Source: Eubacteriales bacterium
GTDB taxonomy: Bacteria; Bacillota; Clostridia; Oscillospirales; CAG-272
Assembly: GCA_045649045.1 (NCBI GenBank)
Contig: JAZRPF010000043.1
Location: 459 to 64,458, forward strand
Length of the DNA stretch: 64,000 bases
Reading direction: 5' to 3'
The translations under genes and the position numbers were made by a program. The notes under the pieces are model-generated. The model was given only the letters and a program-made list of their open reading frames with translations. It had not been told where the DNA came from and searched no databases. This document shows positions 4,688-64,000 of this stretch, piece by piece; position 1 is the stretch's first letter, and each line of letters begins with the position of its first letter.

Positions 4688-4727
4688 TCCCCTTGGCAAG
4701 CACAACGCTCGTCAAGGGGATTTTTTC
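4688..4727 (+). terminator. Rho-independent terminator after the holin gene
   Basis: TCCCCTTG...CAAGGGGA stem followed by TTTTTT. Confidence 0.7.
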
Positions 4728-4798
4728 TTTTATGCCGTTATCTGTGTTCGCTCGTCCCTCTCGCGTGTTGCAACGCGTTTTTCGGGGCTCTGCGAGGG

Positions 4799-4993: not shown

Positions 4994-5003
4994 AATCAGA
5001 ATT

Positions 5004-5192: not shown

Positions 5193-5242
5193 AAGGAAAA
5201 TCCCCCGAGCCGCAAAGAGCAGTTCGGGGGATTGGAACATAG

Positions 5243-5506: not shown

Positions 5507-5563
5507 GCTCCTTTCGTTAAATTCTAACAGTTTTTTATCGTTTTCGCTTGGTTTTGTTAGAAA

Positions 5564-5580
5564 ATAACGAAATGCGTTAT
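5564..5580. promoter_or_regulatory. Inverted repeat ATAACG-N5-CGTTAT, candidate operator upstream of the XRE gene
   Basis: Perfect 6-bp arms about 60 nt upstream of the 5506 start. Confidence 0.3.
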
Positions 5581-5620
5581 GAAAATGAAAATAGAAACGC
5601 AAAATAATCGGTGGAATAAC

Positions 5621-5656
5621 AAAAAAGACTATCGCAGTAAGACGATAGTCTTTTTT
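5621..5656. terminator. Bidirectional terminator (ends the tRNA-Met/Glu transcript)
   Basis: AAAAAAGACTATCG...CGATAGTCTTTTTT, with a perfect 14-nt arm including A/T runs on both sides. Confidence 0.75.
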
Positions 5657-5757
5657 GTTATTCATTGTGCAGACAAAACGAGAGGGCAAAGACTGTGCCT
5701 ACAACGGTGATAGCAACACCAGGGCAAACTATCTTTGTGTGTTCGTCTTGTCCAATT

Positions 5758-5832
5758 TGGTGACCCGTACGGGAATCGAACCCATGTTACAGCCGTGAAA
5801 GGGCCGTGTCTTAACCTCTTGACCAACGGGCC
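5758..5832 (-). tRNA. tRNA-Glu (anticodon UUC), CCA encoded
   Basis: GGCCCGTTGGTCAAGAGGTTAAGACACGGCCCTTTCACGGCTGTAACATGGGTTCGATTCCCGTACGGGTCACCA. Clean cloverleaf, near-identical to the Bacillus tRNA-Glu as I remember it. Confidence 0.95.
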
Positions 5833-5909
5833 TGGTAGCGGAAGTCGGACTTGAACCAACGACCTGTCGGGTATGAACCGAATGCTCTAGCCAACTGAGC
5901 TATTCCGCC
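5833..5909 (-). tRNA. tRNA-Met, elongator type (anticodon CAU), CCA encoded
   Basis: GGCGGAATAGCTCAGTTGGCTAGAGCATTCGGTTCATACCCGACAGGTCGTTGGTTCAAGTCCGACTTCCGCTACCA. The anticodon loop TTCATAC and G1-U72 match elongator Met. A tRNA-Ile2 (lysidine) identity is not strictly excluded. Confidence 0.9.
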
Positions 5910-5941
5910 ATATGAACTTCCTACGCTTTAAGCGCTTGTAT

Positions 5942-5970
5942 ATTATAACACGCCAAAATCATTTTGTCAA
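5942..5970 (-). promoter_or_regulatory. Consensus sigma-A promoter of the tRNA-Met/Glu operon
   Basis: Minus strand reads TTGACA-17 nt-TATAAT with TGt extended -10. Lies about 30 nt upstream of tRNA-Met. Confidence 0.8.
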
Positions 5971-6068
5971 CACCTTTTTCAAAAAAAATTGATGATTTTT
6001 TTGCTGATGAGATAGCAGGTATCTGCCATCAAAAATGCCACGCCAAAAACAATTCGGCGCGGCATTTT

Positions 6069-8165
6069 TCAAACTGCTCGAAAAAGAGCAGTCAAAGCCA
6101 TACAAATCATGATTCCTACCACCGTCGGAAGCGCAGCAGCAAGCGCTGTCCATTTCCATGAGCCCGTTTCCTTTTTGATTGTCAAAAGCGTCGTTGTGCA
6201 CGGAAAATGACAGATGAAAAGCACAAGCACCGAAATTGCCGTTTGCCATGTCCATCCTGCCGCTGTCAAAAGCGCGTGCATCTCCTCTGTGCCGCCAAGC
6301 GATGCAAGCTTCCCTTCCGCCGTATATGCCATAATCATAATCGGCAAGACAATTTCATTAGCAGGCGCACCGAGAATAAATGCAAGTAATATAACGCCAT
6401 CCACTCCCATCAGTCGTCCGAAAGGCTCAAGTGCATTCGCCGCATAGGCGAGCAGACTCTCTCCGCCAACCGTCAGGTTGGCAAGCAAAAAGAGCAACGC
6501 ACCCGCAGGCACAGCAACCGCAACAGCACGCCCAAGCACAAAAACTGTACGGTCAAAAACCGAACGAACAATGACTCGCCCGATTTCAGGTCGACGGTAG
6601 GGCGGTAATTCAAGAACAAAGGAGGACGGTGCCCCACGCAAAAATGTAGCCGATAGAAATCTCGTTGTCAGAAAGGTTAGAAGAATTCCCCCCACAATCA
6701 ACCCCGCAAGCATCAGGGCAACCACAAAGCTCCCCGCTGCACCGTCAATCCCCACAGCACAAAACATAGTCAGCACTGCAACGAGCGCAGGAAACCTACC
6801 GTTACAGGGGACAAACTGATTGGTCAGAATGGCAAGCAGGCGTTCACGCGGCGAATCAATAATGCGACAGCCAGTCACACCCACCGCATTGCATCCAAAG
6901 CCCATACACATCGTCAGTGCCTGCTTGCCGCAAGCATGACAGCACCGAAAGGGCGCATCAAGATTATACGCTATACGCGGAAGGTAGCCTGCATCCTCAA
7001 GCAATGTAAACAAAGGGAAGAAAATAGCCATCGGCGGTAGCATGACCGAAACTATCCATGCAGTCACACGGTAGCAGCCAAAAATCAGAAAATCACGCAG
7101 CGGCAAGGGCAAAGAAAGTGCCTTCAAACCCCGAAACAGATAGTCCTCTAACCGAAAAAGCAAATCCGAAAGAAATGAGGAAAAGTAATTTGCGCCAACA
7201 ACTGTTAACCAAAAAACCAACGCAAGCAGAGCAAGCATGGACAAAAATCCCCACACCTTCCCTGTCAAAAAGGCATCCATGCGCCTGTCCCTGTCCCCCG
7301 AGCTTTCGGGACACAAAACCGCCCCCTTCACAACCTCTTCCGCCTCGCGAACAATGGAAGACACCGTCATATCTGCAAATTCCGCCCGACCAATTGCGTG
7401 ACTTTCAAGCACCTGTTGTGCCACTTCAAGCGCATCACAAAGATCCGTATCCAGAAAAAAATCCGTTCCAAAGCGTTCCGCAAGTGATGAATAAAGGCTC
7501 TCGTCCCCCTCCAAAAGTCGCGCGGCAATAAAGCGGCTGACAGGAGTCCCCTCCTGCCCCGATGTCTCTTTCATGAGGCGTGCCACCGTCGGCTCCACCA
7601 AATTGATTGCCTCTTCAATTGCACTCGGATAGACAATTCGGTGTGTATAGCTCTCCTCGCTCTTTGAAAAAAGTGTGTCGAGCGCACCTGTGAGAAGCTT
7701 GGCGGCATTTTTCTTTCTTGCTGACAGGCCAACAACAGATATGCCCAGCCGGCACGAGATGGCACCAAGATCAAGAGTAATCCCCTTCTTCTTTGCCTCA
7801 TCCATCAAATTGACACAAAGTATAACGCGCGGACAAAGCTCCGCCGTCTGTATAACAAGATTCAAGTTACGCAGAAGGCAGGTCGCATCGGCTACCACCA
7901 CAACGGCATCGGGCTTTTGAAACAGGAGAAAATCCCTTGCCACCGCCTCCTCCTCGGAATGTGCAAGCAATGAATAAGTACCCGGCAGGTCAACGAACCG
8001 ATATTTCTCGCTCTCCCCCACCGCTAACCCAACCGTCTTGCCCGTCCAGTTGCCTGTATGCTGATGCATTCCCGTCAGCGCATTAAAAAGCGTGCTTTTT
8101 CCAACATTCGGATTGCCCGCAAAGGCAATTGTTTTTTTCTCCTTGATTAACCCCTTTTTCTGCAT
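6069..8165 (-). CDS. feoB: Ferrous iron transporter FeoB
   Basis: N-terminal G-domain (AFAGNPNVGKSTLFNALTG...DLPGTYSL) followed by a polytopic membrane domain. AGGAGGGG RBS. Confidence 0.95.
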   Translation of the reverse strand: MQKKGLIKEKKTIAFAGNPNVGKSTLFNALTGMHQHTGNWTGKTVGLAVGESEKYRFVDLPGTYSLLAHSEEEAVARDFLLFQKPDAVVVVADATCLLRNLNLVIQTAELCPRVILCVNLMDEAKKKGITLDLGAISCRLGISVVGLSARKKNAAKLLTGALDTLFSKSEESYTHRIVYPSAIEEAINLVEPTVARLMKETSGQEGTPVSRFIAARLLEGDESLYSSLAERFGTDFFLDTDLCDALEVAQQVLESHAIGRAEFADMTVSSIVREAEEVVKGAVLCPESSGDRDRRMDAFLTGKVWGFLSMLALLALVFWLTVVGANYFSSFLSDLLFRLEDYLFRGLKALSLPLPLRDFLIFGCYRVTAWIVSVMLPPMAIFFPLFTLLEDAGYLPRIAYNLDAPFRCCHACGKQALTMCMGFGCNAVGVTGCRIIDSPRERLLAILTNQFVPCNGRFPALVAVLTMFCAVGIDGAAGSFVVALMLAGLIVGGILLTFLTTRFLSATFLRGAPSSFVLELPPYRRPEIGRVIVRSVFDRTVFVLGRAVAVAVPAGALLFLLANLTVGGESLLAYAANALEPFGRLMGVDGVILLAFILGAPANEIVLPIMIMAYTAEGKLASLGGTEEMHALLTAAGWTWQTAISVLVLFICHFPCTTTLLTIKKETGSWKWTALAAALPTVVGIMICMALTALFRAV

Positions 8166-50640: not shown

Positions 50641-53600
50641 GAAAGAAAAAAGCTTTCTATGGATGGTAACACCGCGGCGGCGCATGTATCCTATGCATTC
50701 ACCGAAGTTGCGGCTATCTATCCCATCACCCCTTCCAGCCCCATGGCTGAAGTGACCGATACCTGGTCCTCTGCCGAAGGACGCAAGAACATCTTTAACG
50801 ATACCGTTAAGATGATGGAGATGCAGTCCGAAGCAGGTGCCGCAGGTACCGTTCACGGTAGCTTGGCATCAGGCGCCCTGACCACCACCTACACCGCATC
50901 GCAGGGCTTGCTCCTCATGATTCCGAACATGTATAAAATTGCAGGTGAGCTTCTCCCCTGTGTCATTCATGTATCGGCTCGTTGCGTTGCATCCCACGCG
51001 CTCAACATTTTCGGCGACCACTCGGATGTTTATGCTTGCCGTCAGACAGGCTTCGCAATGCTCGCTGAATCCAATCCGCAGGAAATCATGGACCTTGGCG
51101 CTGTTGCACACCTTGCAACCATTAAGGGAAGAGTTCCTTTCCTCAACTTCTTCGATGGCTTCCGTACCTCACATGAAATCCAGAAGATTTCTGTCTGGGA
51201 TTATAAGGATCTGGCTGAAATGGTCGATATGGATGCGATTGCCGCATTCCGCGCCCGTTCTCTGAACCCCGAGCATCCTGTGCTTCGCGGCTCGGCTGAA
51301 AACGGCGATATCTTCTTCCAGCACAGAGAGGCTTGCAACACCTACTATGACAACCTCCCCGCAATTGTCGAGGAGTACATGGACAAGGTGAATGAAAAGC
51401 TCGGCACAAACTATAAGTTCTTCAACTACTACGGCGCACCCGACGCTGACCGCGTTATCGTGGCAATGGGCTCTGTCTGCGATGTTGCAGAGGAGGTTAT
51501 TGACTACCTGAACGCCAATGGCGAAAAGGTCGGTCTTGTCAAGGTTCGTCTGTACCGTCCCTTCGTTGCAGAAAAGCTTGCCGAGGCAATTCCCGCAAGT
51601 GTCAAGAAGATTGCTGTTCTTGACAGAACCAAGGAGCCCGGCGCGCTCGGCGAGCCCCTCTACCTCGATGTTGTCACCGCACTTTCACGCGTTGGCAGAC
51701 AGGCTGAGATTGTCGGCGGCCGTTACGGTCTCGGCTCCAAGGACACCACGCCTGCTTCCATTTTTGCAGTCTTTGCAAATCTTGCCTCTGCTACTCCCAA
51801 GAACAACTTTACCGTCGGCATCGTCGACGATGTCACAGGCTTGTCTCTTGAGGAACAGCCCGCACCCCATGTTGCGCCCGCTGGCACCATCGCTTGCAAG
51901 TTCTGGGGCTTGGGCGGCGACGGTACTGTCGGTGCGAACAAGAACTCCATCAAGATTATCGGCGACCATACCGATAAATACATTCAGGCATACTTCCAGT
52001 ATGACTCCAAGAAGACGGGCGGCGTGACCATTTCTCACCTCCGCTTCGGCGATTCGCCCATCAAGTCTTCCTACTATATCACCAAGGCTGACTTTGTTGC
52101 CTGCCATACACCCTCCTATATGCTGAAGGGCTACAAGATTGTCAACGATGTGAAGCCGGGCGGTACCTTCCTTCTGAACTGCCAGTGGAGCGACGAGGAG
52201 CTTGACAGCCACCTTTCCGCAGAAACCAAGCAGTACATTGCAAACAACGGCATCAAGTTCTATACCGTTAATGCCATTGATATGGCAAAGAAAATCGGTA
52301 TGGGCAAGCGCACCAACACCATTCTGCAGTCTGCATTCTTTGCTCTTGCAAACATCATGCCGATTGCCGAGGCTGTTGACTACATGAAATACATGGCAAA
52401 GAAGTCCTATCTGAAGAAGGGCGAGGATGTTGTTCAACTGAACTACAACGCCATTGACGCAGGTGTTGATGCCATTCATGAGGTGAAGGTTCCTGACGCT
52501 TGGAAAACCGCTGCCGATACTGCCGCTGAAAAGAAGGCAGAGAGCAACCGCGGCGAGCTTGAGAAGTTTGTCAATGAGGTTGTGTTCCCTGTTGCAAAGA
52601 TGCAGGGTGATGCACTTCCCGTATCGGCATTCACCGATTATGCAGACGGTACCTTCCCGCAGGGTGCTGCCGCATTTGAAAAGAGAGGCGTTGCCGTTGA
52701 TGTTCCTGTATGGCACGCTGAAAACTGCATTCAGTGTAACCAGTGCGCTTATGTCTGCCCGCACGCCGCAATCCGTCCCTTCGCTCTGAATGACGAGGAG
52801 AAGGCTGCTGCTCCCGCAGACACCAAGTACACCGCAAAGATGATTGGTAAGGGTTGCGAAGGCCTCCACTTCACCATGGCAATCAGCCCGCTTGACTGTA
52901 TGGGTTGTACCCTCTGTGTGAAGGCTTGCCCGACCAAGCCCGAAAAGCGCGCAATTGAAATGGTCAGCCAGGAATCCCAGCTCGCACAGCAAGCTTCCTT
53001 CGACTACTGCGTTGCCAATGTTTCCTCGAAGGAGCTTCCCTTCGCTGACAACACCATTAAGGGCAGCCAGTTCAAGCAGCCGCTTCTTGAGTTCTCCGGC
53101 TCCTGCGCAGGCTGTGCCGAGACCTCTTACGCTCGTCTGATTACCCAGCTCTTCGGCGAAAGAATGTATATTTCCAACGCAACAGGCTGTTCTTCCATTT
53201 GGGGTGGCTCTGCTCCCTCTACTCCTTACACCGTCAACCGCGAGAGCGGCCGCGGTCCTGCTTGGGCAAACTCGCTCTTCGAGGATAACGCTGAGCACGG
53301 TCTCGGTATCTACCTCGGTCAGAAGGCAATTCGCGACCGCCTGATTGGCTATGTCCGCGAGCTGCACAGCGATAACGCTGATGAGCAGGCAATTATCGAC
53401 GCTTATCTTGCAACCATCGACGACGGTAAGGCAAACGCACCGGCAACCGATGCACTCGTCGCTTTGCTCGAAAAGTGGGCTGCAAACGGCTGTGAGAAGG
53501 CTTCTCGCATCCTCGCTGAAAAGTCCTACCTCTCCAAGAAGTCGGTTTGGATCTTCGGTGGTGACGGTTGGGCATACGATATCGGCTTCGGCGGTCTTGA

Positions 53601-54192
53601 CCATGTCATCGCATCCGGTGAGGATGTCAATATCATGGTATTCGATACCGAGGTTTACTCCAACACAGGCGGTCAGGCATCCAAGGCATCCAACATCGGT
53701 CAGGTTGCACAGTTTGCCGCTGCCGGTAAGGCAATCGGCAAGAAGGACCTTGCACAAATCGCCATGTCCTACGGCTATGTCTATGTTGCACAAATCGCTA
53801 TGGGTGCTGACATGAACCAAACCATGAAGGCTCTCTGCGAGGCAGAGGCATACAAGGGCCCGACTATCATCATCGGCTACGCTCCTTGCGAAATGCACAG
53901 CATCAAGGGCGGCATGGCAAACTGCCAGGCTGAAATGAAGAAGGCTGTCGAGGCTGGCTACTGGCAGATGTTCCGTTACAATCCTGCTTTGAAGGCAGAG
54001 GGCAAGTCCCCCTTCACGCTGGATTCCAAGGAACCCACCGCAAGCTACCAAGACTTCATCAAGAGCGAAGCTCGTTATGCTCGTTTGGCACAGGCATTCC
54101 CCGAAAGAGCTGCTGACCTGTTCGCAAAGGCTGAACAGAACGCCAAGGCGAAGTACGACCGTCTCTTGAAGCTCAAGGACTTCTACGAATAA
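50635..54192 (+). CDS. nifJ: Pyruvate:ferredoxin (flavodoxin) oxidoreductase
   Basis: [39 protein letters not shown].... Two 4Fe-4S ferredoxin motifs ([25 protein letters not shown]) and a TPP domain ([10 protein letters not shown]). ATG at 50635 with a GGAGGA RBS. Confidence 0.97.
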   Translation: [1185 protein letters not shown]

Positions 54193-54197
54193 GATAT

Positions 54198-54234
54198 AAA
54201 AAACAAGGTGAGCCTCGGCTCACCTTGTTTTTTT
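54198..54234 (+). terminator. PFOR terminator
   Basis: AAAAAACAAGGTGAGCC..GGCTCACCTTGTTTTTTT. Confidence 0.9.
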
Positions 54235-54236
54235 GT

Positions 54237-54348
54237 ATAATGAAGGGACATTTTTCAATTGCTTGTTTGTTCTAACTTCTTATCTTTGCTTTTATCATGA
54301 ACAGACTTTTCTCAATTGCCTATTTGTTCTGACTTCCTATCTCTCTTC
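54237..54348 (+). repeat. Imperfect tandem repeat (period 57), each unit containing an 11-codon mini-ORF
   Basis: Unit 1 starts at 54240 (ATGAAGGGACATTTTTCAATTGCTTGTTTGTTCTAA...). Unit 2 starts at 54297 (ATGAACAGACTTTTCTCAATTGCCTATTTGTTCTGA...). 33/39 identity over the best-aligned core. Confidence 0.7.
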
Positions 54349-54358
54349 ACCGTATATC

Positions 54359-54388
54359 AAAGCAGGCGTGCCGTGGCACGCCTGCTTT
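54359..54388. terminator. Hairpin between the repeat region and the fucI 3' end
   Basis: AAAGCAGGCGTGCC-gt-GGCACGCCTGCTTT, a 14-bp stem. Confidence 0.65.
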
Positions 54389-54402
54389 GTTTGAAATGAA
54401 TT

Positions 54403-56232
54403 TTATTTGTAAAGAGGACCGAATGCGGCACAAGCGCGGTAGTCCTGACCTTCCTTGTCTGCACCAAATGCATTCCATACAGCAGGACGGAAAATGTCAT
54501 CCTCAGGAACATTATGCATACAAACAGGAATGCGGAGCATCGAGCACATTGTGATAAGGTCGGCACCGATATGACCGTAGCTGATTGCGCCGTGGTTTGC
54601 GCCCCAGTTGCTCATGACCTCGTAAGCGGTCTTGAAGGGACTTCCCTCCTTGCCGTCGCAACGAGGAGCAAACCAGGTGCAAGGCCATGTCGGGTTGGTG
54701 CGTTCCATCAGCTTATCGGAAACCTCGTCGGGAAGCTTGACAGTCCATCCCTCTGCAATTTGAAGAACAGGGCCGAGTCCCTTCACAAGATTCAAGCGAA
54801 TCATGGTGCAGGGCATCTCTGCGCGGGTTGTATAGTGGCTGGAGAATCCGCCGCCGCGGAAGTTATCAAAGCCTGCCTCGCACCATACGGTCGCGTCGGT
54901 CATCTTCTTGATATCTTCATCAGTCACTTCCCACCACTTCTTCATGGTGGCATTGCCGTTCTCGTCAGTGCATTCGCCGCAAGCATCAAGGCAAGCTGCG
55001 CCCGAGTTCAAGAGGTGAATGATACCGTTCGATTCAGCCGCCTTGCCTTCAAGCTTATAGCCTGTCACACGCTCGGTTGCCTCACCTGACCAATATGTAC
55101 GGACATCAGCAAAAATCTGTGCGCGGTGTGTCAGAAGGCGCATAAAGAGCATACCAAGACCGTTTAATACATCATTCTCGGTTGCCAGGGTGTACGGCCC
55201 ACGCGCGCCCTCGTAGTCAAAGGTCGAGGACAGAAGTGCCTCGGGGTAGTCGCAGTTCGGCCAATGGTCTGTCCATTGACGCTGTCCCTGAAAGCCACCT
55301 GCGATAGCGTTGTGGCCAACCTTCTCTTCCACAAATGCAACGGGCAGATTCTTGTTGCCTGCCATCAAATCCTTGATGATGCAGTACATCTTGACGGTAA
55401 ACTCCCACTGCTTCTCTTTTTCTTCGGGAGTGAACTTAATCTTATGCTCATGACCGAGGAACGGAACAGACTCGGGGTTATCGTCTCTGCCTTCCTTGCA
55501 GTGCTCCTTTGTCCATGCCAGTGCCTTCTGATATTCTTCTTCGTTATAAATGCCCTCTTCCATACGGCGCAGGATTTCCACCTCGTCAACAGACTCTACG
55601 CGCATACCGAGGTAGGATTCCATGAAGTCCTGGTCGATGATAGAGCCTGCAATACCCATGCACTGTGAGCCAATTTGCAGGTAGGACTTACCGCGCATGG
55701 TAGCAACCGCGATAGCCGCACGGCCGAAGCGCAGAAGCTTCTCCTTCACATCCTCGGGAATCTCGGTGATCTGGTCGCGGTCCTGTACCTCATGACCATA
55801 AATACCAAACGCAGGCAAGCCCTTCTGTGCATGACCTGCCAGAACAGCCGCCAGATAAACGGCACCGGGACGCTCTGTACCGTTAAAGCCCCACACGCCC
55901 TTGATGGTCTGGGGATCCATATCCATCGTCTCGGAGCCGTAGCACCAGCAGGGTGTGACGGACAGAGTGATGTCAACGCCTTCCTTCTTGAACTTGTTTG
56001 CACAAGCGGCAGCCTCGGGCACACGACCGATAGAGGTGTCAGCCATCACGACCTTCACATGCTCACCGTTCGAGTAGAACAGATTTTCTTCAAAAAGCTT
56101 CTTGGCGGCGTTTGCCATCGCCATAACCTGTGCTTCCAGGCTTTCGCGCAGCATCATCGGGCCACGGCGACCATCAACGATGGGGCGAATGCCAATGACG
56201 GGATAATCACCAACATATCTGTTTTTTGCCAT
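54403..56232 (-). CDS. fucI: L-fucose isomerase
   Basis: ...[13 protein letters not shown]...[18 protein letters not shown]... closely parallels E. coli FucI as I recall it. 609 aa. Confidence 0.92.
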
Positions 56233-56379
56233 TGTATCATACCTCTTTCTTATAAATTTTCAGTTCTTTAGGAAGTCACTTTCTTCCATTATAGTCATTA
56301 TAACATAAATACGAAAAAAGCACAACCGTCTTTTGTAATTTTTTTGCATTTTTTTGCCACAAACGGCACCGTCTGTTGA

Positions 56380-56422
56380 GAATAGTCAAAACCACCGGCC
56401 AAGCCGGTGGTTTTGACTATTC
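56380..56422. repeat. 20-bp perfect hairpin at the 3' end of the sigma-like gene and left edge of the recombinase module
   Basis: GAATAGTCAAAACCACCGGC-caa-GCCGGTGGTTTTGACTATTC. Overlaps the stop codon by 2 nt. No U-tract on the minus strand. Confidence 0.7.
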
Positions 56423-56789
56423 ATGATCTCTTGCTTTTTGTGCGCTCACACTCAACTGCTTCTTTTTCTCTTATGTAGGCATTCATTCCGTGCATGATAG
56501 GAAAAAGCCTGTTAGGCGCACTTAAATGTTTTTGTACCATGCGGTCAAATTGATAGATATAGCTTAACCCAACACCAAAGGCACTGGCAATTTCGGCGCT
56601 TGACATCTGTTTTTGATAGCGCATCTCGATGAATCTTTGTTCCCTTTCTTTGAGTGTGGAAATTGCATATTCAATGCCTCGTAAAATATCATCTGTAATA
56701 CGAGACGGCACGCTGACTCTCTCGCTGTTTCTGTACTGAATCGCCAGTATCAAGTTAATCGGATATTCTTCCTTCAAAAACTGCCGCAT
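56421..56789 (-). CDS. Sigma-70 region-4-like HTH protein
   Basis: ...LKEREQRFIEMRYQKQMSSAEIASAFGVGLSYIYQFDRMVQKHL.... ATG at 56789, directly after the upstream stop (TGAcATG). Confidence 0.7.
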   Translation of the reverse strand: MRQFLKEEYPINLILAIQYRNSERVSVPSRITDDILRGIEYAISTLKEREQRFIEMRYQKQMSSAEIASAFGVGLSYIYQFDRMVQKHLSAPNRLFPIMHGMNAYIREKEAVECERTKSKRS

Positions 56790-56790
56790 G

Positions 56791-57060
56791 TCACACCGTT
56801 TCCTTTGGATTTTTTTCTTTTCCAAGGTCCTGTTTCAAAATTCGCCTTGCGATATATTCAAGTTCTCTTTTTGACATTGCACAAATTTTATCATTTTTTA
56901 TTTGCCGATAGCAATTCTCGCATAATTGCCCACACCCCGAAACATAAAACCTTCGCATATCAACGGGTACGTCATAAGTATAGCCTGTTTCATCTCCGCA
57001 CAAAACACATCTGTCAGGCTCATTCATCGTTTGAATAGCAATCTTTTCTTTTATTTTCAT
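56791..57060 (-). CDS. Small Cys-rich (zinc-ribbon-like) protein
   Basis: MKIKEKIAIQTMNEPDRCVLCGDETGYTYD...SGCGQLCENCYRQ... (CxxC...CxxxCxxC). Confidence 0.6.
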   Translation of the reverse strand: MKIKEKIAIQTMNEPDRCVLCGDETGYTYDVPVDMRRFYVSGCGQLCENCYRQIKNDKICAMSKRELEYIARRILKQDLGKEKNPKETV

Positions 57061-57129
57061 GTATTTTCACCTTTTTGAGCTTCACGCAATGCTTGCCTCG
57101 GTGGGCGTCAGCAATTAAAAGATATGAAT

Positions 57130-57154
57130 ACAACATAATTCTCATTATGTGGTA
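57130..57154. repeat. Left inverted repeat (lox-like site) of the candidate invertible segment
   Basis: ACAACATAATTCTCATTATGTGGTA is the reverse complement of 57421-57445 at 24/25 positions (22 contiguous). Confidence 0.9.
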
Positions 57155-57196
57155 GTTAAAAAAAGTAAATAAGTTTTTACAAGATTTACATATGTT

Positions 57197-57225
57197 ATTA
57201 TACTATCAATTTACCCAAAAATCAA
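57197..57225 (-). promoter_or_regulatory. Near-consensus promoter inside the IR-bounded segment (TTGATT-17-TATAAT), currently facing the 57060<-56421 genes
   Basis: Minus strand reads gggTTGATTtttgggtaaattgatagTATAATaac. An 8-1-8 palindrome AAAGCAAA-T-TTTGCTTT (57239-57255) lies just upstream of the -35. Confidence 0.7.
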
Positions 57226-57420
57226 CCCTTTTCTACAAAAAAGCAAATTTTGCTTTGTAAAGTTTTTTAATTTTTAATCATTCAGAATGAAAAATTGCAT
57301 ACCAAAACACCCCCCTGCCCTAGCTTTTTTGGAAAGGAAAGCATTGGGGGGCTTTTTGCCGTTTGGCTATGAAGCGAAAAAGAAAGAAATGCCTTTTGTT
57401 TTTTCTTTTTCGCTTGATTT

Positions 57421-57445
57421 TACCACATAATGAGAATTATGTGGT
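57421..57445. repeat. Right inverted repeat (lox-like site)
   Basis: TACCACATAATGAGAATTATGTGGT. Begins 10 nt beyond the recombinase stop codon. Confidence 0.9.
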
Positions 57446-57455
57446 TTTTCTTTTT

Positions 57456-58292
57456 CTATAAAACAAGACCAAGCTGCTCGATTTTGCGTCGATGCTCTCT
57501 GCCACTTGACATAATATAGATTCTTGTCGTTTCGATACTGCTGTGACCGAGAATATCCGCGAGCTTGGCAATATCCTTTTCAATGCCATAAAAAGTGCGC
57601 GCAAAGAGCTTGCGGAGATTGTGCGGAAAGACCTTTTTGGGATTGACTCCCGCCGCCTCGCATAATCCCTTCATATCTGCCCATATATTCGAGCGATTCA
57701 TCGGCTTTCCTTTCCGCGTACAGAAAATGACACCTGTGGCAATGCCTTTCTTCTTTGCGTAATCAAGCAGATGCCCTCTCAATTTTCTTGGAATTAGAAT
57801 TGTCCTTGTTTTATTTTTGCAGGATACAACGACACTTCCCCGCCTGACCGACTCTACCGTAAAGAATTGAAGCTCGGATACGCGAATACCCGTGCCGCAA
57901 ATTGTCTCAATCAAAAGACAAAGGCGGGGCTTTTTTCTCGATGCATCAAGCAATCTCATATATTCCGCCTTGGTCAATTCCTTTTCCTCTGCCTGATAGA
58001 TTTCCCGCTGAATTTTCAAGATTTTCACCTTGCAATCCGCCCATTTCAAAAACGAAAAAAGACTGTTCATTGATGCAATTTTGGAATTGACCGAGCGCGG
58101 CAAATATCCCTTCTGTATCAAAGCTTGCTTATATGCAAGCGCTCTTTCTTTTGTGAGCTCCTGTCCATCAAGATAGAGCATCAGATCCCTTGCATCCTGC
58201 GTGTATTTCTTCACGGTAGCAGAGGACTTCTCCTCGTTCATCAAATGCTTTTGAAAATTCCGAATCTTATCACTTGTCAATTTTTTCATCAT
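57456..58292 (-). CDS. Tyrosine recombinase (phage-integrase family)
   Basis: ...IETICGTGIRVSEL... (Arg I), ...HNLRKLFA... (H-x-x-R), ...LGHSSIETTRIYI (His/Tyr). GAAAGGAAGG RBS before ATG 58292; the track start 58427 is spurious. Confidence 0.9.
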   Translation of the reverse strand: MMKKLTSDKIRNFQKHLMNEEKSSATVKKYTQDARDLMLYLDGQELTKERALAYKQALIQKGYLPRSVNSKIASMNSLFSFLKWADCKVKILKIQREIYQAEEKELTKAEYMRLLDASRKKPRLCLLIETICGTGIRVSELQFFTVESVRRGSVVVSCKNKTRTILIPRKLRGHLLDYAKKKGIATGVIFCTRKGKPMNRSNIWADMKGLCEAAGVNPKKVFPHNLRKLFARTFYGIEKDIAKLADILGHSSIETTRIYIMSSGREHRRKIEQLGLVL

Positions 58293-58395
58293 AATAACCT
58301 TCCTTTCATCACCTTTATTCTGCCTCACGCCGACCGATTTATTTACAATTTCTTCTTTACCATTTGCCTTATATTGCATTTTCGCAGCATGGCTC

Positions 58396-58424
58396 TTGCT
58401 TTTTTTGAAAAAACAGAGTATAAT
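58396..58424 (+). promoter_or_regulatory. copA promoter (TTGCTT-17-TATAAT)
   Basis: cTTGCTTtttttgaaaaaacagagTATAATcat. ACActTGTA at 58438-58446 lies between the -10 and the RBS. Confidence 0.5.
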
Positions 58425-58458
58425 CATAGGTGAATAAACACTTGTAAATGAGGTTTTT

Positions 58459-60693
58459 ATGAAAAGTAATTTTTCGGTCAGCGGTATGATGTGTGCCGCC
58501 TGTGCATCTCATGTAGAAGGTGCTGTCAAACGCATTGCGGGTGTTCAGGATGTCACGGTCAGCCTACTGACAAATTCTATGACTGTGATGCACACTTGCC
58601 CTGCGTCCGATATTGAAAATGCAGTTTCGCATATCGGCTATGAAGCCGCATTGCTCGAAAGAAAGGCAAGCGGAAGCAGCTTCACACACATAGGCACACA
58701 GGCAAAAAACGAAAGGAGCGCAACCGTGCGAATGCTCCTATCAGCCACGCTCTCACTTGTTCTTTTTGTCATTTGCATGGGACATATGCTGGGGATGCCG
58801 CTTCCGCACATAATAAGTCCAATGCACCACCCCGTCAATTATCTATTGATACAGGCGACTTTGGCAACCCCTGTCCTCTTCCTGCAATTCGGTTATTTCC
58901 GCCGCGGTACAGCCGCCCTGCTCCGTCTGCGTCCTTCGATGGATACACTTGTGGCTCTGGGATCGGGTGCCGCCTACCTGCATGGCATGATTGTCTTGGT
59001 GCTTGCCCTGCTTTCGCAGCTTGATGCGCACCATGTTCATGTTTATTTCGAGGCTTCTGCCATGATTTTGGCATTGGTCAGCATCGGCAAACGCTTGGAA
59101 GGCAGAGCGAAAGACAAGACAGCCGATGCCATTCGCGCACTTGCCGCCCTCTCGCCCAAAACCGCCGCCGTGCTTTCAGAGGATGGAAGCGAAATGACGG
59201 TCAATACCGAAAACCTGACCGTCGGTATGCACATTGTTCTTCGTGCGGGCGACAGCATTCCTGCTGATGGCAAGGTGGTTGCAGGTCACGGTGCCATTGA
59301 CGAATCGTCACTCACGGGCGAGAGCCTGCCAATTGACAAAAAAGAGGGTGATACAGTCACCTCGGGCAGCATGATGAAGGACGGCTACCTCGTCTTTTGT
59401 GCCGAGCGCGTCGGTGACGAGACCTCGCTTTCAGAAACCGTCCGTATGGTTGCAGAGGCGGCAGCCACCAAAGCACCCATCGCCAAAGCCGCCGATGCGG
59501 TGGCGGCAATATTTGTCCCCGTTGTTCTCCTGATTGCTCTTATCAGCTTTCTTGCCTTTTTCATTGTAACAGAGAGCCTTTCGACCGCACTCTCGCACCT
59601 TATCAGCGTGCTTGTCATTTCCTGTCCCTGCGCACTCGGACTTGCAACGCCAACTGCGATTATGACAGCGACAGGGCGCGGTGCCGAGCTTGGTATTCTT
59701 TTCAAAAGTGCCGAATCACTTGAAGCGCTCGGTCACATCAATACGGTGGCATTTGATAAAACAGGAACACTCACCAATGGTAAAATGGCACTTGCCGACT
59801 ATCGCCTGACAGACGGAACTGAGCCGAGCGAAGCGGCACGCGTTCTCTATGCACTTGAAAGTCAATCCTCTCACCCGATTGGTGAGGCTCTCGCGGCACA
59901 CTTTGCCGCCTATGCAGGTGCCGAGGCAAAGGGCTTCTCTGTCATTGAGGGCAAGGGCGTCTTTGCGCGCGTTGACGGGCAAAAGTGCATGGCAGGCAAT
60001 CTCCATCTGTTTGAAGATGATTTGGAATTTGACATTTCCCCGCTTCGCGCCGATTTTGACCGCATGACCGCGGCAGGAGCAACCGCAGTGTTTCTCTCTG
60101 CCGGCGAGCGCCTGCTCGGTATCTTTTCGGTTGCCGATACCCTGCGCCACGAGTCGCCCGATGCCATTTCCGCCCTGCACCGCCTCGGCATTAAGACCTG
60201 TATGCTGACAGGCGACAATACAGGCAGTGCCGCATACATGGCAGAAAAGGCAGGTATCGCCGAATTTCATGCCACACTCTCGCCAAAGGGCAAAGCACAG
60301 CTGATTGAAGCCCTTGCAAAAGACGGCAAAACTGCCATGGTCGGTGACGGCATCAACGATGCTCTGCCGCTTGTTTCGGCTGATGTCGGAATTGCGGTAG
60401 GGGCAGGCACCGATGTGGCAATTGCTTCGGCTGATGTTGTACTGCGCCGTGAAACACCGCTCGATGTTGTCAATGCGATTCTGCTTGGTCGCGCAACACT
60501 TCGGAATATCAGGCAAAATCTCTTTTGGGCGCTCGCCTATAATTCGCTCTGTATTCCCATTGCCGCAGGCGTATTTGCGCCGCTCGGCTTGACGCTTTCC
60601 CCCATGCTTGCCGCTGCCGCTATGAGCCTCTCCTCGCTTTTTGTGGTCGGCAATGCATTGCGTCTACGCCGATTCAAGCCGATTCTCCGATAA
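58459..60693 (+). CDS. copA: Copper-translocating P1B-type ATPase
   Basis: N-terminal HMA domain (GMMCAACASHVEGAV), CPC motif (SCPCALGLATP), DKTGTLT, and GDGINDA. Confidence 0.95.
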   Translation: MKSNFSVSGMMCAACASHVEGAVKRIAGVQDVTVSLLTNSMTVMHTCPASDIENAVSHIGYEAALLERKASGSSFTHIGTQAKNERSATVRMLLSATLSLVLFVICMGHMLGMPLPHIISPMHHPVNYLLIQATLATPVLFLQFGYFRRGTAALLRLRPSMDTLVALGSGAAYLHGMIVLVLALLSQLDAHHVHVYFEASAMILALVSIGKRLEGRAKDKTADAIRALAALSPKTAAVLSEDGSEMTVNTENLTVGMHIVLRAGDSIPADGKVVAGHGAIDESSLTGESLPIDKKEGDTVTSGSMMKDGYLVFCAERVGDETSLSETVRMVAEAAATKAPIAKAADAVAAIFVPVVLLIALISFLAFFIVTESLSTALSHLISVLVISCPCALGLATPTAIMTATGRGAELGILFKSAESLEALGHINTVAFDKTGTLTNGKMALADYRLTDGTEPSEAARVLYALESQSSHPIGEALAAHFAAYAGAEAKGFSVIEGKGVFARVDGQKCMAGNLHLFEDDLEFDISPLRADFDRMTAAGATAVFLSAGERLLGIFSVADTLRHESPDAISALHRLGIKTCMLTGDNTGSAAYMAEKAGIAEFHATLSPKGKAQLIEALAKDGKTAMVGDGINDALPLVSADVGIAVGAGTDVAIASADVVLRRETPLDVVNAILLGRATLRNIRQNLFWALAYNSLCIPIAAGVFAPLGLTLSPMLAAAAMSLSSLFVVGNALRLRRFKPILR

Positions 60694-60697
60694 TTGC

Positions 60698-60743
60698 AAA
60701 AACACCCTTTCCAAGCTATGAATAGCTTGGAAAGGGTGTTTTT
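60698..60743. terminator. Bidirectional terminator after copA
   Basis: AAAAACACCCTTTCCAAGCTA-tgaa-TAGCTTGGAAAGGGTGTTTTT. Confidence 0.9.
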
Positions 60744-61299
60744 AATTTTGCGTTGCTTGCTTGGCATATTCGGTTCTTGAAGTCAATATCTGATAGAAAA
60801 CCTGATTCGAGCCGAGAAGCACCATGATATATCCCATATCGGTATGGGCATACAGTCTGATTCGATACTGTGGGCGCATGGAATTGGTGAAGGAAAAATG
60901 CTTTTCGGGCTTTTTCTTTTTGATACTGTCAGGCAGACTTCGGCCGCGCTCTTCAAGATAAAGCTCCTCCACCTCGTCAAGATAGATGTGGCAAACTGTT
61001 GAAATGCGACGCCCCTGTGTGTCAGTGACAATCAGGACGGCGCGGGAATTGAGAGAGGTCAAGGTATAGGTGCGATAAGAAAGATAATAGCGAAAGCCAA
61101 AATAGATGCCCACCGCCCCGCAAATCATGACAAGCGATTGCCAGATTGCTGAATACAAAAATCCGATTCCCGACATGACAAAGGAAAAGAATGCCAAGAT
61201 GAAGGCGACCAGGATAACGATAGCAGGCAAGCAGTTTTCACTTGTATGCCGATAGTGCAGCTCCGTCATACAGGGCGACGCATCATGCATATTAGTCAT
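60742..61299 (-). CDS. Hypothetical two-TM membrane protein
   Basis: ...LPAIVILVAFILAFFSFVMSGIGFLYSAIWQSLVMICGAVGIYFGF... followed by a soluble C-terminal domain. AGGGAG RBS 7 nt before ATG 61299. Overlaps the upstream gene by 8 nt. Confidence 0.6.
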   Translation of the reverse strand: MTNMHDASPCMTELHYRHTSENCLPAIVILVAFILAFFSFVMSGIGFLYSAIWQSLVMICGAVGIYFGFRYYLSYRTYTLTSLNSRAVLIVTDTQGRRISTVCHIYLDEVEELYLEERGRSLPDSIKKKKPEKHFSFTNSMRPQYRIRLYAHTDMGYIMVLLGSNQVFYQILTSRTEYAKQATQN

Positions 61300-62035
61300 G
61301 CGGGCGTTCTCCCTTCGAAAGCTCATATTTTTTCACATTATAGACATAAAGATGCGCCTTGTCCGAGCCGTCCTCTGCCAGCATATGCGTTTCGTAGATG
61401 GGCAGGCGCGCAATTGGCTCTTCAATGCCTTCAATATAGATATTGAGTGTGAAATAAAAGCTACCCGATTGATTTCCTGTCGCATCGGTCACAATCTCAC
61501 ATTCATGCGGAAGGGGAAATTTGACACCGTCAAAGATGAGCTTACGGTAACGGTACATGAAGCGCTCTGCCTGCTTTTCTTCTGAAAGCGAATAAATCTG
61601 ACCGTCCGATGCAACAAGTTTATAAATAAATGCCGAATCGTCGGGCAAGAGGTCTTGTCCGTACTCTTCGCGCAAATTTCTGACCGAGCTTGAATTATAA
61701 CGAACCGTAATTTGAAGCTGCTCTGCCTTTGGAATCAAAAAGAGTGCGTGCGAAAAGAAATTGCCATCATCGCTATCGTCATAAGGAATACGGATTTTTT
61801 GCGTATAAATATCCATATCCCCCCCTGTCGCATCATAATGTGCGCGGAGTGTCTGGTTAAAATAGACCTCCTCCATTGCAGAAGGATAGGTTTCCTGCGT
61901 CCAGATACGGAAGAGTATCAGCCCGCAAACGCCGACAATGATGATAAGAAGGAAAATGCGCAGAATCCAGCCGATAGGACCGCGCTTCTTTTTTTCACCG
62001 CTGTAAACATCCTCAATATGTCCGTATTGTTCCAT
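61292..62035 (-). CDS. Hypothetical N-terminally anchored protein
   Basis: MEQYGHIEDVYSGEKKKRGPIGWILRIFLLIIIVGVCGLILF... followed by a ~200-aa extracytoplasmic domain. Confidence 0.6.
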   Translation of the reverse strand: MEQYGHIEDVYSGEKKKRGPIGWILRIFLLIIIVGVCGLILFRIWTQETYPSAMEEVYFNQTLRAHYDATGGDMDIYTQKIRIPYDDSDDGNFFSHALFLIPKAEQLQITVRYNSSSVRNLREEYGQDLLPDDSAFIYKLVASDGQIYSLSEEKQAERFMYRYRKLIFDGVKFPLPHECEIVTDATGNQSGSFYFTLNIYIEGIEEPIARLPIYETHMLAEDGSDKAHLYVYNVKKYELSKGERPHD

Positions 62036-62233
62036 TGGCAACTCTCGCTTTCATGTTGTTTCTTTTTTTATTATACAACATCCTTCACGATTTGTCAAAG
62101 GTTTTTCAAGCTGACTTTTCGCATAAACTCTGTTTTTTGAAACTTTTTTCGCTTGAAGTATTGACAAACGACAAGCTTTCATGTATAATAACTTGTAGAC
62201 TTCTAATTTGAGAAGCGAGAAAGGATGTGTCCG

Positions 62234-62776
62234 ATGAAGCTTGATGTCCGTGCTTTGCTGGCAGGTGAATCCCGTTCCTTGCCGATTGACATACTGCTTC
62301 CTTTCTCCGCCGATTCACAAGATACAAAAACCACTATTGGTGACTTTACCTTTGATGGGCCGATAACCGTCAAGGGCGAAATCCTCAATACCGCCGGATA
62401 TCTCCGCTTGACAGCAACGCTTGAGGCCGCATATACCACCTTCTGTGCGCGTTGTCTTGATGAGGTTAAGGGTGTCTTTTCCTTCCCCTTTGAGCGCACG
62501 GTCTCCACGCGCAAGCAGCTTTCGGACTTGCCCGAAGAGGCGCTTGATGACTATGTGTTGGCTGATGACGGTTATATTGTTCTTGATGACCTGCTTCTTG
62601 AATTTTTTGAGCTTTCTCTTCCCCTCCGCACACTCTGTCGCGAAGATTGCCTCGGTCTTTGCCATCATTGTGGCAAAAACCTGAATCAAGGCGCTTGCGA
62701 CTGTGCCTCGACAGAAGTCGATCCTCGGCTAGCTCCTCTTCAAAAGTGGCTTGCCGAACATAAAGAGGAAGAATAG
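62234..62776 (+). CDS. yceD: YceD/DUF177 family ribosome-maturation-associated protein
   Basis: C-terminal ...CREDCLGLCHHCGKNLNQGACDC... motif. Conserved position upstream of rpmF. ATG at 62234 with an AAAGGA RBS. Confidence 0.85.
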   Translation: MKLDVRALLAGESRSLPIDILLPFSADSQDTKTTIGDFTFDGPITVKGEILNTAGYLRLTATLEAAYTTFCARCLDEVKGVFSFPFERTVSTRKQLSDLPEEALDDYVLADDGYIVLDDLLLEFFELSLPLRTLCREDCLGLCHHCGKNLNQGACDCASTEVDPRLAPLQKWLAEHKEEE

Positions 62777-62872
62777 TAGCTCCGTCGCCGAGCGATGCAT
62801 CGGCTTTCCCAATTGTCAAACAAAAAATAAAGATAAGCGCATTCGCGCTGACCGATTAAGGAGGTAACACAC

Positions 62873-63058
62873 ATGGCAGTACCGAAGAAAAAGGTTTCCA
62901 AAGCACGCAGAGACAAGCGCCGTTCAAATGTCTGGAAGCTTGATGCTCCCGGCATGGCAAAGTGCCCTAACTGCGGCGAATACAATTTGACTCACCGTGT
63001 TTGCAGCAATTGCGGCAGATACAATGGCGAAGTCGTTGTCGCAAAGAAGGAAGCGTAA
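62873..63058 (+). CDS. rpmF: 50S ribosomal protein L32 (zinc-ribbon form)
   Basis: [22 protein letters not shown]...CPNCGE...CSNCG. Confidence 0.97.
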
Positions 63059-63130
63059 CAAAGAAGAAACCCGTCTTTACCGTAATTGTCATAGGGATTT
63101 TTACGGTAAGTAGCAGGGTTTCGAAAAGTT

Positions 63131-63160
63131 AAGGCGTGGCGCGAAAGCCACGCCTTTTCT
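63131..63160 (+). terminator. Terminator after rpmF
   Basis: AAGGCGTGGC-gcgaaa-GCCACGCCTT followed by TTCT. Preceded by a nested hairpin at 63068-63118. Confidence 0.75.
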
Positions 63161-63217
63161 CATATTCAGATTTAATAGTTGACTTAATTCAAGGAGGCTA
63201 ATTAAGAATTCAATCTA

Positions 63218-63246
63218 TTGACTTAAAAAGAAATTTATGGTATAAT
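63218..63246 (+). promoter_or_regulatory. rhaA promoter (TTGACT-17-TATAAT, TGg extended -10)
   Basis: aTTGACTtaaaaagaaatttatggTATAATcaa. A second TTGACTTAA and a 7-bp inverted repeat (CTTAATT...AATTAAG) lie 40 nt upstream. Confidence 0.65.
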
Positions 63247-63309
63247 CAATTTGTTAGAGTATGACATTTTAGTGATTTATTAAACGCGAAAACGCGTAGG
63301 AGGGCAAAA

Positions 63310-64000
63310 ATGAATCAAAAAGAAAGATACTTATCTGCAAAAGAAATGTACGCTGATATCGGCATTGACACCGAAGAAGCACTCAAAAAACTTCAAAATG
63401 TGCGCATTTCTATGCATTGCTGGCAAGCAGACGATGTTCACGGATTTGAAGGTATGGGCGCGCTCACGGGTGGCATACAAACCACGGGTAACTATCCTGG
63501 TATTGCCAGAAATCCCGAAGAAGTTTTTGCTGATATTGACAAAGCTTTGTCACTTATACCCGGCACGCACAAAATCAATGTTCATGCAAACTACGCTATT
63601 ACAGAAGACGGAGAAGAAGTTGACCGCGACAAGTTAGAACCTAAACATTTCAAAAAATGGGTAGAACTCGCTAAAAAGCACAACTGCGGGCTTGATTTCA
63701 ACCCCACCATTTTCTCTCACCCGATGGCATCAAGCGGAATGACTCTGTCAAGCCCCGACGACAATGTCAGAGAATACTGGATTCGTCATTGCATAGCGTG
63801 TATCAGAATTTCGGAATATTTTGCAACTGAAACCGGTTATCCTTGCGTAATGAACATTTGGACCGGCGACGGCACGAAAGATGTTCCGGCTGACCGCATG
63901 GGTCCGAGAGAAAGATACAGAGATTCTATTGACCGCGTGCTTGCTTGTGGATATGATAAAAAGAAAGTTTATGTTACAGTAGAATCCAAGGTGTTCGGTA
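63310..64000 (+). CDS. rhaA: L-rhamnose isomerase (N-terminal 230 aa; continues beyond the window)
   Basis: Own translation; not in the track because it runs off the edge. MNQKERYLSAKEMYADIGIDTEEALKKLQNVRISMHCWQADDVHGFE.... GGAGGG RBS. The frame is open to position 64000. Confidence 0.88.
   Translation, partial: MNQKERYLSAKEMYADIGIDTEEALKKLQNVRISMHCWQADDVHGFEGMGALTGGIQTTGNYPGIARNPEEVFADIDKALSLIPGTHKINVHANYAITEDGEEVDRDKLEPKHFKKWVELAKKHNCGLDFNPTIFSHPMASSGMTLSSPDDNVREYWIRHCIACIRISEYFATETGYPCVMNIWTGDGTKDVPADRMGPRERYRDSIDRVLACGYDKKKVYVTVESKVFG

Follow-up and report, generated by a model that had tools for sequence, protein, structure and literature searches.

A naturally inverting segment with a predicted promoter beside an Xer-like recombinase gene, and the family of clostridial loci related to it

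A 266-bp non-coding segment in the genome of an Eubacteriales bacterium inverts in nature. Between assembled contigs the segment is found in either orientation with its flanks unchanged, and the breakpoints lie in the inverted repeats that bound it. The segment was studied in a stretch of 64,000 nucleotides (the window) from contig JAZRPF010000043.1. We regard it as very likely that the locus is a working phase-variation switch, in which an invertible promoter is served by the recombinase encoded next to it. Linkage points to this recombinase as the catalyst, and the action of the promoter and terminators and the switching of the cargo genes between ON and OFF are predicted from the sequence.

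Among the known routes by which gut bacteria acquire heritable ON/OFF heterogeneity, the invertible promoter is the main one; such promoters have been characterised mostly in Bacteroides, E. coli and C. difficile. The locus described here is a clean example of a very large and little-described family of switches in gut Clostridia, each with its own enzyme, and it is this family-level picture, more than the single locus, that is of interest.

Results

Organisation of the locus

The features of the locus are collected in Table 1. An earlier note on this DNA had proposed a recombinase-driven invertible promoter bounded by a 25-nt inverted repeat, and the repeat is as it was described: 57130-57154 (ACAACATAATTCTCATTATGTGGTA) and 57421-57445 (TACCACATAATGAGAATTATGTGGT) match at 24 of 25 positions, 22 of them contiguous. 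A repeat search extends the two copies to 28 nt with 93% complementarity (57127-57154 and 57421-57448), the arms being 266 nt apart. Each copy is itself a palindrome around an asymmetric 4-nt core, as had also been noted, and the core of the recombinase-proximal site becomes TCTC when read on the recombinase strand. The pattern CACATAAT-N4-ATTATGTG, with up to two mismatches allowed, has two matches in the 64-kb window, and these are the two copies of the repeat. Dinucleotide-preserving shuffles give an expectation of 0.01 matches and none of the 100 shuffles contained two, so that an origin as chance repeats was rejected. The spacing given earlier was also reproduced, with the right-hand site 10 nt from the stop of the recombinase ORF and the left-hand site 69 nt from the start (57060) of the 89-aa Cys-rich ORF, and the 8-1-8 palindrome is present. 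The module of 2.1 kb forms a low-GC island, with 33-46% GC as against 52-58% in its neighbours. A search of Rfam over 56200-58600 gave nothing above a gathering score.

Table 1. Coordinates of the features of the locus, as positions in the window
Feature	Position	Strand	Details
Second cargo gene, 122 aa, sigma-70 region-4 helix-turn-helix only	56421..56789	-	Pfam Sigma70_r4, Sigma70_r4_2
Perfect hairpin of 20 bp closing the cargo operon, likely terminator	56380..56422	.	Inverted repeat I2, 100% complementary, 3-nt loop
First cargo gene, 89-aa Cys-rich (CxxC...CxxxCxxC) zinc-ribbon-like protein	56791..57060	-	ORF
Cargo-proximal site	57127..57154	.	ACATAAT 57133-57139, core TCTC 57140-57143, ATTATGT 57144-57150
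Invertible segment, 266 bp, ON orientation in the window	57155..57420	.	Inverted in contigs L175 and L176
Predicted sigma-70-type promoter TTGATT-17-TATAAT, outward toward the cargo	57197..57225	-	Promoter scan, 10/12 matches
8-1-8 palindrome AAAGCAAA-T-TTTGCTTT	57240..57256	.	5' of the -35 element; read from the sequence
GC-rich hairpin, terminator-like in both directions	57308..57357	.	Minus strand -19.8 kcal/mol, tail TTTTGGTA; plus strand -18.9 kcal/mol, tail TTTTTGCC
Second hairpin, terminator-like on the plus strand only	57369..57418	+	Inverted repeat I3; -16.6 kcal/mol, tail TGATTTTA
Recombinase-proximal site	57421..57448	.	ACATAAT 57425-57431, core GAGA 57432-57435, ATTATGT 57436-57442
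Xer-like tyrosine recombinase gene, 278 aa	57456..58292	-	Pfam Phage_integrase 2.4e-24 and Phage_int_SAM_1

The near-consensus promoter claimed for the minus strand of the segment was recovered by the promoter scan. A weaker promoter-like site lies opposed to it on the plus strand (57176-57204), and transcripts starting there would stop at the same hairpins in either state. The earlier note had further assigned to two hairpins the termination of the recombinase transcript. Both hairpins exist, but only the one at 57308-57357 has a U-rich tail in the direction of that transcript. On the plus strand, T-tails follow both hairpins and also the right-hand site. It would seem that the hairpins act chiefly as insulation for the cargo when the switch is OFF, and not simply as terminators of the recombinase transcript.

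No Pfam or NCBIfam family was found for the zinc-ribbon-like protein encoded by the first cargo gene, though homologues occur inside operons downstream of three related switches (L036, L059 and L076). For the second cargo protein the NCBIfam matches are confined to region 4 of FliA, SigF and ECF sigma factors. A full HMMER scan against 1.84 billion representatives gave 216 relatives of this 122-aa protein and, of ten that were scanned for domains, nine are fusions of Sigma70_r4 with RNA_pol_A_CTD (the RNA polymerase alpha C-terminal domain), mostly 200-250 aa in length. Word-based searches with both cargo proteins returned same-species sequences only. The cargo is most likely a phase-variable pair of small transcription modulators; the combination of a protein consisting of sigma region 4 only with a zinc-ribbon partner suggests a phase-variable regulator.

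Both orientations of the segment are found among assembled contigs

Contigs carrying the same locus were obtained through the 90%-identity cluster (five members) of the recombinase gene call P0001. This is a longer call of 323 aa starting at 58427, and the recombinase is recorded only in this form. Exact-protein look-ups gave no match for the recombinase as a 278-aa or 279-aa protein, for the 89-aa and 122-aa cargo proteins or for the neighbouring fucose isomerase, and the contigs from the L32 look-up were short and all stopped before the switch.

In two of the contigs, L175 (ENA ERZ28593939 scaffold_17578) and L176 (ERZ27317572 k141_417956), which are 98.4% identical to the window, the segment is inverted. 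When L175 was compared with a reverse-complemented extract of the window (52001-63500), it was collinear with extract positions 3871-6080 and 6347-7094, while positions 6053-6374 aligned in reverse; the aligned flanks, 2210 nt on the left and 748 nt on the right, are thus both collinear. The predicted OFF sequence, made by reverse-complementing 57155-57420, matches L175 at 785 of 800 positions, as against only 672 for the ON sequence, and within the switch itself L175 differs from the predicted flipped sequence by a single mismatch. At the junctions in L175 and L176 each outer arm retains its flank (AAAACC... on one side, ...TTGTATTCA on the other) and the inner flanks have traded places, as predicted for strand exchange inside the sites. 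The orientation of the window, on the other hand, is seen in six contigs, among them L169-L172, which are ~96.4% identical over 8-11 kb and collinear including the switch, and L173, which is 99.3% identical. L175 and L176 pair by sample in the same way as L161 and L162 do and are probably two assemblies of a single sample, so that the flipped state of this exact locus should be counted as one independent observation.

Among the checks suggested in the earlier note was a search of homologous loci for the same repeat pair in both orientations. This search was positive, the 98.4%-identical locus being flipped with its breakpoints inside both sites, and the claim of an invertible segment is borne out in that both orientations occur naturally among contigs, here and in at least four other pairs of close relatives. 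The flipped locus also lends support to the reading as an ON/OFF phase switch, in which the promoter is predicted to be active, the cargo to be silenced on inversion and the neighbouring enzyme to be the catalyst.

The places at which some contigs end were also considered. Three contigs with an identical recombinase (L166-L168) end 33 nt (an ENA scaffold), 8 nt and 8 nt (both Logan) beyond the 22-nt repeat that the two sites share. With k=55 for the ENA scaffold and k=31 for Logan, both values being assumed, the offsets correspond to k-22 and k-1-22, and it is suggestive that this is where an assembly graph would be expected to branch if both junctions were present. However, contigs would be expected to stop 8 nt sooner at an outgoing branch. 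Two further contigs do not fit, namely L173, which ends 20 nt short of the expected branch point, and L174. As the offsets suit three contigs and not these two, the contig ends were rejected as proof of mixed populations.

The site pair is shared by a family of recombinase-linked loci

A search for relatives of the recombinase, with one genome per species, gave more than 380 matches, of which the best 80 (58-67% identity) were analysed; these are from Lachnospiraceae, Oscillospiraceae, Faecousia, Acutalibacteraceae, Blautia, Holdemania and others. A scan of metagenomes added 80 further relatives, bringing the set to 161 loci (160 related loci and the window). Among the matches listed in the scans of genomes and metagenome contigs none was above 67% identity. 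At a wider level, at least 7,990 recombinase clusters (90% identity) match with E <= 1e-60, and the source databases label these proteins merely as "tyrosine-type recombinase/integrase".

In nearly all of the 160 related loci the sequence ACATAAT-N4-ATTATGT starts 7-60 nt past the stop of the recombinase gene, even though the proteins have diverged by ~40%, and the gene is always linked in cis to the site. A partner site whose core is exactly the reverse complement is present in 130 of the 161 loci, 210-430 nt further on and mostly at 240-280 nt. Some loci have solo sites; 21 of the loci that lack a partner are contigs that end before any partner could show, and in only one locus of the set, L103, does the core of a second site fail to match. 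Across the family, conservation at each position of the 7-nt arms is 89-100%. The cores, in contrast, take 34 different forms, none of them palindromic, with C or T as the first base in 96% of loci. The combination of invariant arms, a free but matched core and a constant inverted geometry marks these as recombinase sites that need identical central regions. The earlier note had held that its proposal would fail if the palindromes recurred as plain terminators at loci lacking a recombinase; no such case was seen, the site being found only beside this recombinase family.

Inversion is not confined to the locus in the window. In an all-against-all comparison of the inner segments, 109 of the best matches were on the same strand and 91 on the opposite strand. 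In close pairs the flanks are collinear and the reversal is confined to the segment between the sites, as in L044/L051 (flanks 97.6% and inverted segment 91.8% identical), L020/L039 (84-92% and 93%), L001/L002 (83-96% and 90%) and L021/L033 (82-96% and 90%). The last pair has additional sites, with two proximal and one distal in L021 and one proximal and two distal in L033, and here the inverted block is bounded by the outermost pair; such multi-site loci would allow nested inversions.

The cassette between the sites also has a common layout. In 103 of 130 segments a strong promoter is predicted by motif match, typically cTTGAtttt-17-TATAAT and in many cases with an extended -10; it faces outward, and its -10 ends 35-50 nt from one site. 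This predicted promoter faces the downstream gene (ON) in 31 loci and the 3' end of the recombinase gene (OFF) in 72. With the promoter drawn rightward, 71 loci have a terminator-like hairpin in the direction of the promoter that ends ~100-125 nt from the far end, and hairpins in the opposite direction lie ~50-75 nt (73 loci) or 0-25 nt (38 loci) from it. Most family members have a terminator-like hairpin 50-125 nt from the far end, the same relative position as that of the hairpin at 57308-57357. The window conforms to this layout and is in the ON state.

Throughout the family the recombinase gene and the first gene downstream are in the same orientation; otherwise the cargo is very diverse, with more than 40 unrelated cargo families, mostly of surface or regulatory genes. 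Signal peptidase S26 heads some operons, for example in L036 and L059, which also encode secreted proteins that we take to be camelysin/TasA-like from their appearance. Other Pfam assignments are an MmeI-type methyltransferase (a weak match), SPFH together with zinc-ribbon proteins, TetR, GGDEF, a LytS-type histidine kinase, a cohesin/dockerin/NlpC surface protein, an adhesin-like DUF5979 protein, an EPS-priming sugar transferase, a ResIII/DEAD helicase, an MBL-fold protein and a sulfatase-like protein.

The recombinase and its sites

By sequence the closest relatives of the recombinase are XerA, XerC and XerD, yet it is a member of none of these equivalog families. Its top NCBIfam match, XerA_Arch, scores 136.9 bits (cutoff 220), and it falls below the cutoffs of both XerD (107 bits, cutoff 329.6) and XerC (94 bits, cutoff 335). 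Membership of the FimB/FimE-type invertases was rejected, with 20.0 bits against NF007370 (cutoff 221) and 15.5 bits against NF007371 (cutoff 222), as was that of the integron integrases (TIGR02249, 44.5 bits, cutoff 265). The nearest solved structures are those of the XerC-like protein of Pyrococcus (4a8e) and of E. coli XerD (1a0p). In an alignment to XerD the catalytic set is complete, with R137, K161, H224, R227, H250 and Y259.

The sites had been likened to loxP and FRT. Two half-sites around a directional spacer are indeed present and the two sites are in opposite orientation, but the recombinase is Xer-like and this brings the sites nearer to the dif type than to loxP or FRT. The overlap used by tyrosine recombinases is usually 6-8 bp; since the variable core is only 4 nt, the true crossover must take in some of the invariant flanking bases. 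Action at a single dif-type site was rejected, given the inverted site pairs ~250 bp apart beside the gene in 130 loci.

In the mechanism that we propose, the Xer-like recombinase expressed from the adjacent upstream gene would bind the palindromic arms as dimers, synapse the two sites and carry out strand exchange over the asymmetric TCTC core. With the two cores in opposite orientation the outcome would be inversion and not excision. In the ON state, as in the window, the promoter would read through the left-hand site into the zinc-ribbon and sigma-region-4-like genes, and the bidirectional hairpin at 57308-57357 would end the recombinase transcript before it reached the promoter. In the OFF state the promoter would drive antisense transcription into the recombinase gene from its 3' end, and two T-tailed hairpins directly ahead of the cargo would block read-through. 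The second hairpin (57369-57418), once inverted, would face read-through from the recombinase gene just ahead of the cargo.

Discussion

Three other explanations of the locus were weighed. It is improbable, in our judgement, that the segment inverts but owes this wholly or partly to another enzyme acting in trans, the adjacent recombinase having some other task, for example in mobilisation or integration of the module. The evidence for the cis enzyme consists of its linkage, and there is a precedent in C. difficile, where RecV is unlinked and serves many switches, several of which act after transcription initiation; as one RecV serves several distant switches, another enzyme could similarly act in trans here. 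In at least one MAG (JAZRMH01), moreover, the core CTGC is common to two switches, L031 and L035, which makes cross-action between paralogues conceivable. Set against this is the constancy of the linkage, the site being 7-60 nt past the recombinase stop in nearly all related loci at ~40% protein divergence, and the arms and the gene are conserved together while cargo and flanks vary, as would be expected of an enzyme and its own substrate.

That the sites are instead the attachment sites or ends of a small mobile element comprising recombinase and cargo, with excision and integration or a dimer resolution like that of Xer/dif as the main activity and inversion as a side reaction, we consider highly improbable. 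The Xer-like recombinase, the low GC content of the 2.1-kb module, the mosaic flanks within the family, where synteny breaks at the distal site, and the occurrence of solo sites would all suit such an element. However, the sites bracket only the 266-bp non-coding cassette, in inverted orientation and with a conserved promoter and terminator layout, and do not bracket the module; the enzyme scores far below the cutoffs for XerC, XerD and the integron integrases; and the variation actually seen is inversion. It is more improbable still, to the point that we attach almost no weight to it, that the palindromes are ordinary terminators or operator-like hairpins arising from a local duplication and that the flipped contigs are assembly artefacts. 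The right-hand site does score as terminator-like, with its T-run on the plus strand, and segments between inverted repeats can be mis-oriented by short-read assemblers. The shared repeat of 22 nt is, though, shorter than the usual assembly k-mers, so that mis-orientation is not expected, and the same inverted contig came from two different assemblies. On the strand of the gene that each follows, neither site has a T-tail, and a terminator would have no need of cores that covary as reverse complements in 130 loci with 34 cores.

A phase-variation switch served by the adjacent recombinase, the reading that we prefer, has clear parallels. In E. coli fimS an invertible segment of ~300 bp is bounded by inverted repeats and carries one promoter, which drives the adjacent operon in one orientation, and by analogy the locus can be regarded as functionally an inverton of the fimS type. 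As with FimB and FimE, the gene for the tyrosine recombinase lies immediately upstream and is transcribed toward the switch, so that here too the 3' end of the recombinase mRNA would depend on the orientation. The differences lie in the enzyme, which is Xer-like with an N-terminal SAM-like domain and outside the FimB/FimE family; in the sites, which have two palindromic arms and a variable 4-nt core where fim has 9-bp repeats; in the use of one recombinase rather than two; and in the cassette, which has its own predicted terminators. The sites share with those of Xer/dif and Cre/loxP the two inverted binding arms and the short asymmetric centre that sets directionality. In contrast to dif (11-6-11) and loxP (13-8-13), arms of 7-10 bp here surround a variable core of 4 nt, and the sites form an inverted pair ~270 bp apart, which gives inversion.

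The RecV switches of C. difficile (flgB, cwpV and cmrRST) are likewise clostridial invertible regulatory elements acted on by a tyrosine recombinase; they differ from the present family, in which every switch comes with a recombinase of its own beside it and a cassette of predicted promoter plus terminators. Among the RecV switches, cmrRST is an earlier case in which the phase-variable cargo is a regulator (PMC6837544).

The earlier note knew of no description of this site architecture paired with this cargo. The architecture is not unique; the locus is one of a huge family, which probably already appears as one group in a survey of the hCom2 community (Microbiome 2025, PMC11892184). According to the searchable text and supplementary PDF of that survey, 32 of the 33 invertons in its inverton group 139 are from Clostridia, in 17 strains; they are ~254-256 bp long with repeats of 13-25 nt, and nearly all have a tyrosine-type recombinase/integrase within 5 kb (PMC11892184). 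The association of group 139 with invertase group 35, a tyrosine recombinase, is given as the strongest between invertons and invertases in the survey, and the orientation ratios of group 139 changed during passaging (PMC11892184). The clostridial host, the adjacent tyrosine recombinase and the inverton length of ~250 bp all agree with what is seen here, and the present family is probably inverton group 139/invertase group 35, a comparison made by description and not by repeat sequence. The two-arm site, the covariation of the cores, the layout of the cassette and the size of the recombinase family are not described in the searchable text and supplementary PDF of PMC11892184. A literature search for a described clostridial family found nothing beyond that survey, and a text search of the literature for the site motif returned unrelated primer sequences only. 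The family-level picture of matched variable cores, a portable cassette and a very large recombinase family is thus in the literature only in part.

As the anatomy of these switches can be read from sequence, through the fixed 7-nt arms, the covarying free 4-nt core and the cassette, they should be easy to annotate in genomes and MAGs, and their ON or OFF state can be read from assemblies. For synthetic biology they offer a compact pair of recombinase and site with a potentially programmable core.

A broader reading, which we put forward only tentatively and think rather doubtful, is that the recombinase and the 300-bp switch make up a portable, self-contained phase-variation module that has come to lie before dozens of unrelated genes, with the distal site as an integron-like cargo junction and the 4-nt core as a private address. 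Such a core would keep the two sites of a switch compatible and limit recombination with paralogous switches in the same genome. The shared core of L031 and L035 in one MAG speaks against this, and no mechanism of cargo capture was seen. The number of recombinase clusters (at least 7,990), the more than 40 unrelated cargo families and the low-GC island are hints of portability. The two members of one lineage pair have 3 kb of upstream DNA in common, together with the recombinase and the switch, but from the distal site onward their DNA is wholly different.

Organisation of the module and of its recombination sites

The recombinase gene, the switch (the invertible segment with its predicted promoter) and the two cargo genes together form a low-GC island, with a GC content of 33-46% compared with 52-58% for the genes on either side, which encode a fucose isomerase and a copper ATPase. 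The fact that the whole module stands out from its neighbours in this way suggests that it was acquired horizontally. A 15-nt direct repeat (93%) is seen near the module edges, which may be due to chance.

Two groups of metagenome loci with a related recombinase, L060, L120 and L137-L158 versus L128, L130, L132, L135 and L141, were compared. Both share around 3 kb of upstream DNA, the recombinase (94-97% nucleotide identity) and the switch (~90%). From the distal, cargo-side site on, the DNA of the two groups is unrelated, with a methyltransferase-like gene beyond the site in one and a 121-aa zinc-ribbon protein in the other. The break in synteny falls exactly on the recombination site, and the cores of the two groups are unlike (CCCG and CATT).

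The number of sites also varies. Two or three tandem copies, about 40-50 nt apart, are found on one or both sides of the switch in L015, L021, L033, L040, L059, L002 and L001. Between L021, with 2+1 sites, and L033, with 1+2, the stretch bounded by the outermost sites is inverted and, therefore, nested or alternative inversions would be possible at such loci. At L012, L096, L101, L136 and L159 the proximal, recombinase-side site stands alone, with no partner found within 3-5 kb. These are possibly locked or deleted switches; the single site of L012 lies between two outer flanks, the proximal one and the distal one of its relative, L001. In L084 a reverse-complement partner lies 2.1 kb away, possibly delimiting a larger invertible block.

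Many contigs break off only a few tens of nucleotides downstream of the recombinase stop codon, at the proximal site or slightly beyond it (L005, L007, L017, L027, L029, L064, L098, L127, L133, L143, L149 and L166-L168), and 21 of the 161 loci are on contigs too short to reveal the partner site. Assembly breaks at recombinase-adjacent switches are unusually frequent. The Faecousia sp. MAG JAZRMH01 has at least two recombinase-switch units, L031 and L035, on different contigs. Both have the core CTGC, so switches with identical cores can share one genome.

Cargo proteins and a second promoter-like site

One cargo protein in the window is a lone sigma-70 region-4 domain. In 9 of 10 scanned relatives this domain is fused to the RNA polymerase alpha C-terminal domain, an unusual architecture, and these fusions are mostly 200-250 aa long. 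The zinc-ribbon gene is undamaged in L175, a contig of the strain with the switch in the OFF orientation. Its product and the zinc-ribbon protein of the window differ at five residues, four of which are grouped within 15 residues about the first CxxC, and the surrounding DNA is 98% identical.

Within the switch a second promoter-like site stands back-to-back with the main promoter. As predicted plus-strand transcripts from it would meet three terminator-like hairpins within ~110-240 nt, a short non-coding RNA is possible. The same region also contains an ORF, probably a spurious one.

Coordinates of the features (window positions except for L175)
Feature	Position	Strand	Detail
Low-GC module	56300-58450		
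Direct repeat	56428-56442 / 58393-58407		
Sigma-70 region-4 gene	56421-56789	-	
Zinc-ribbon gene	56791-57060		
Zinc-ribbon gene, L175	2571-2840		
Second promoter-like site	57176-57204	+	TTTACA-17-TATACT, 10/12 matches
ORF	57287..57430	+	47 aa
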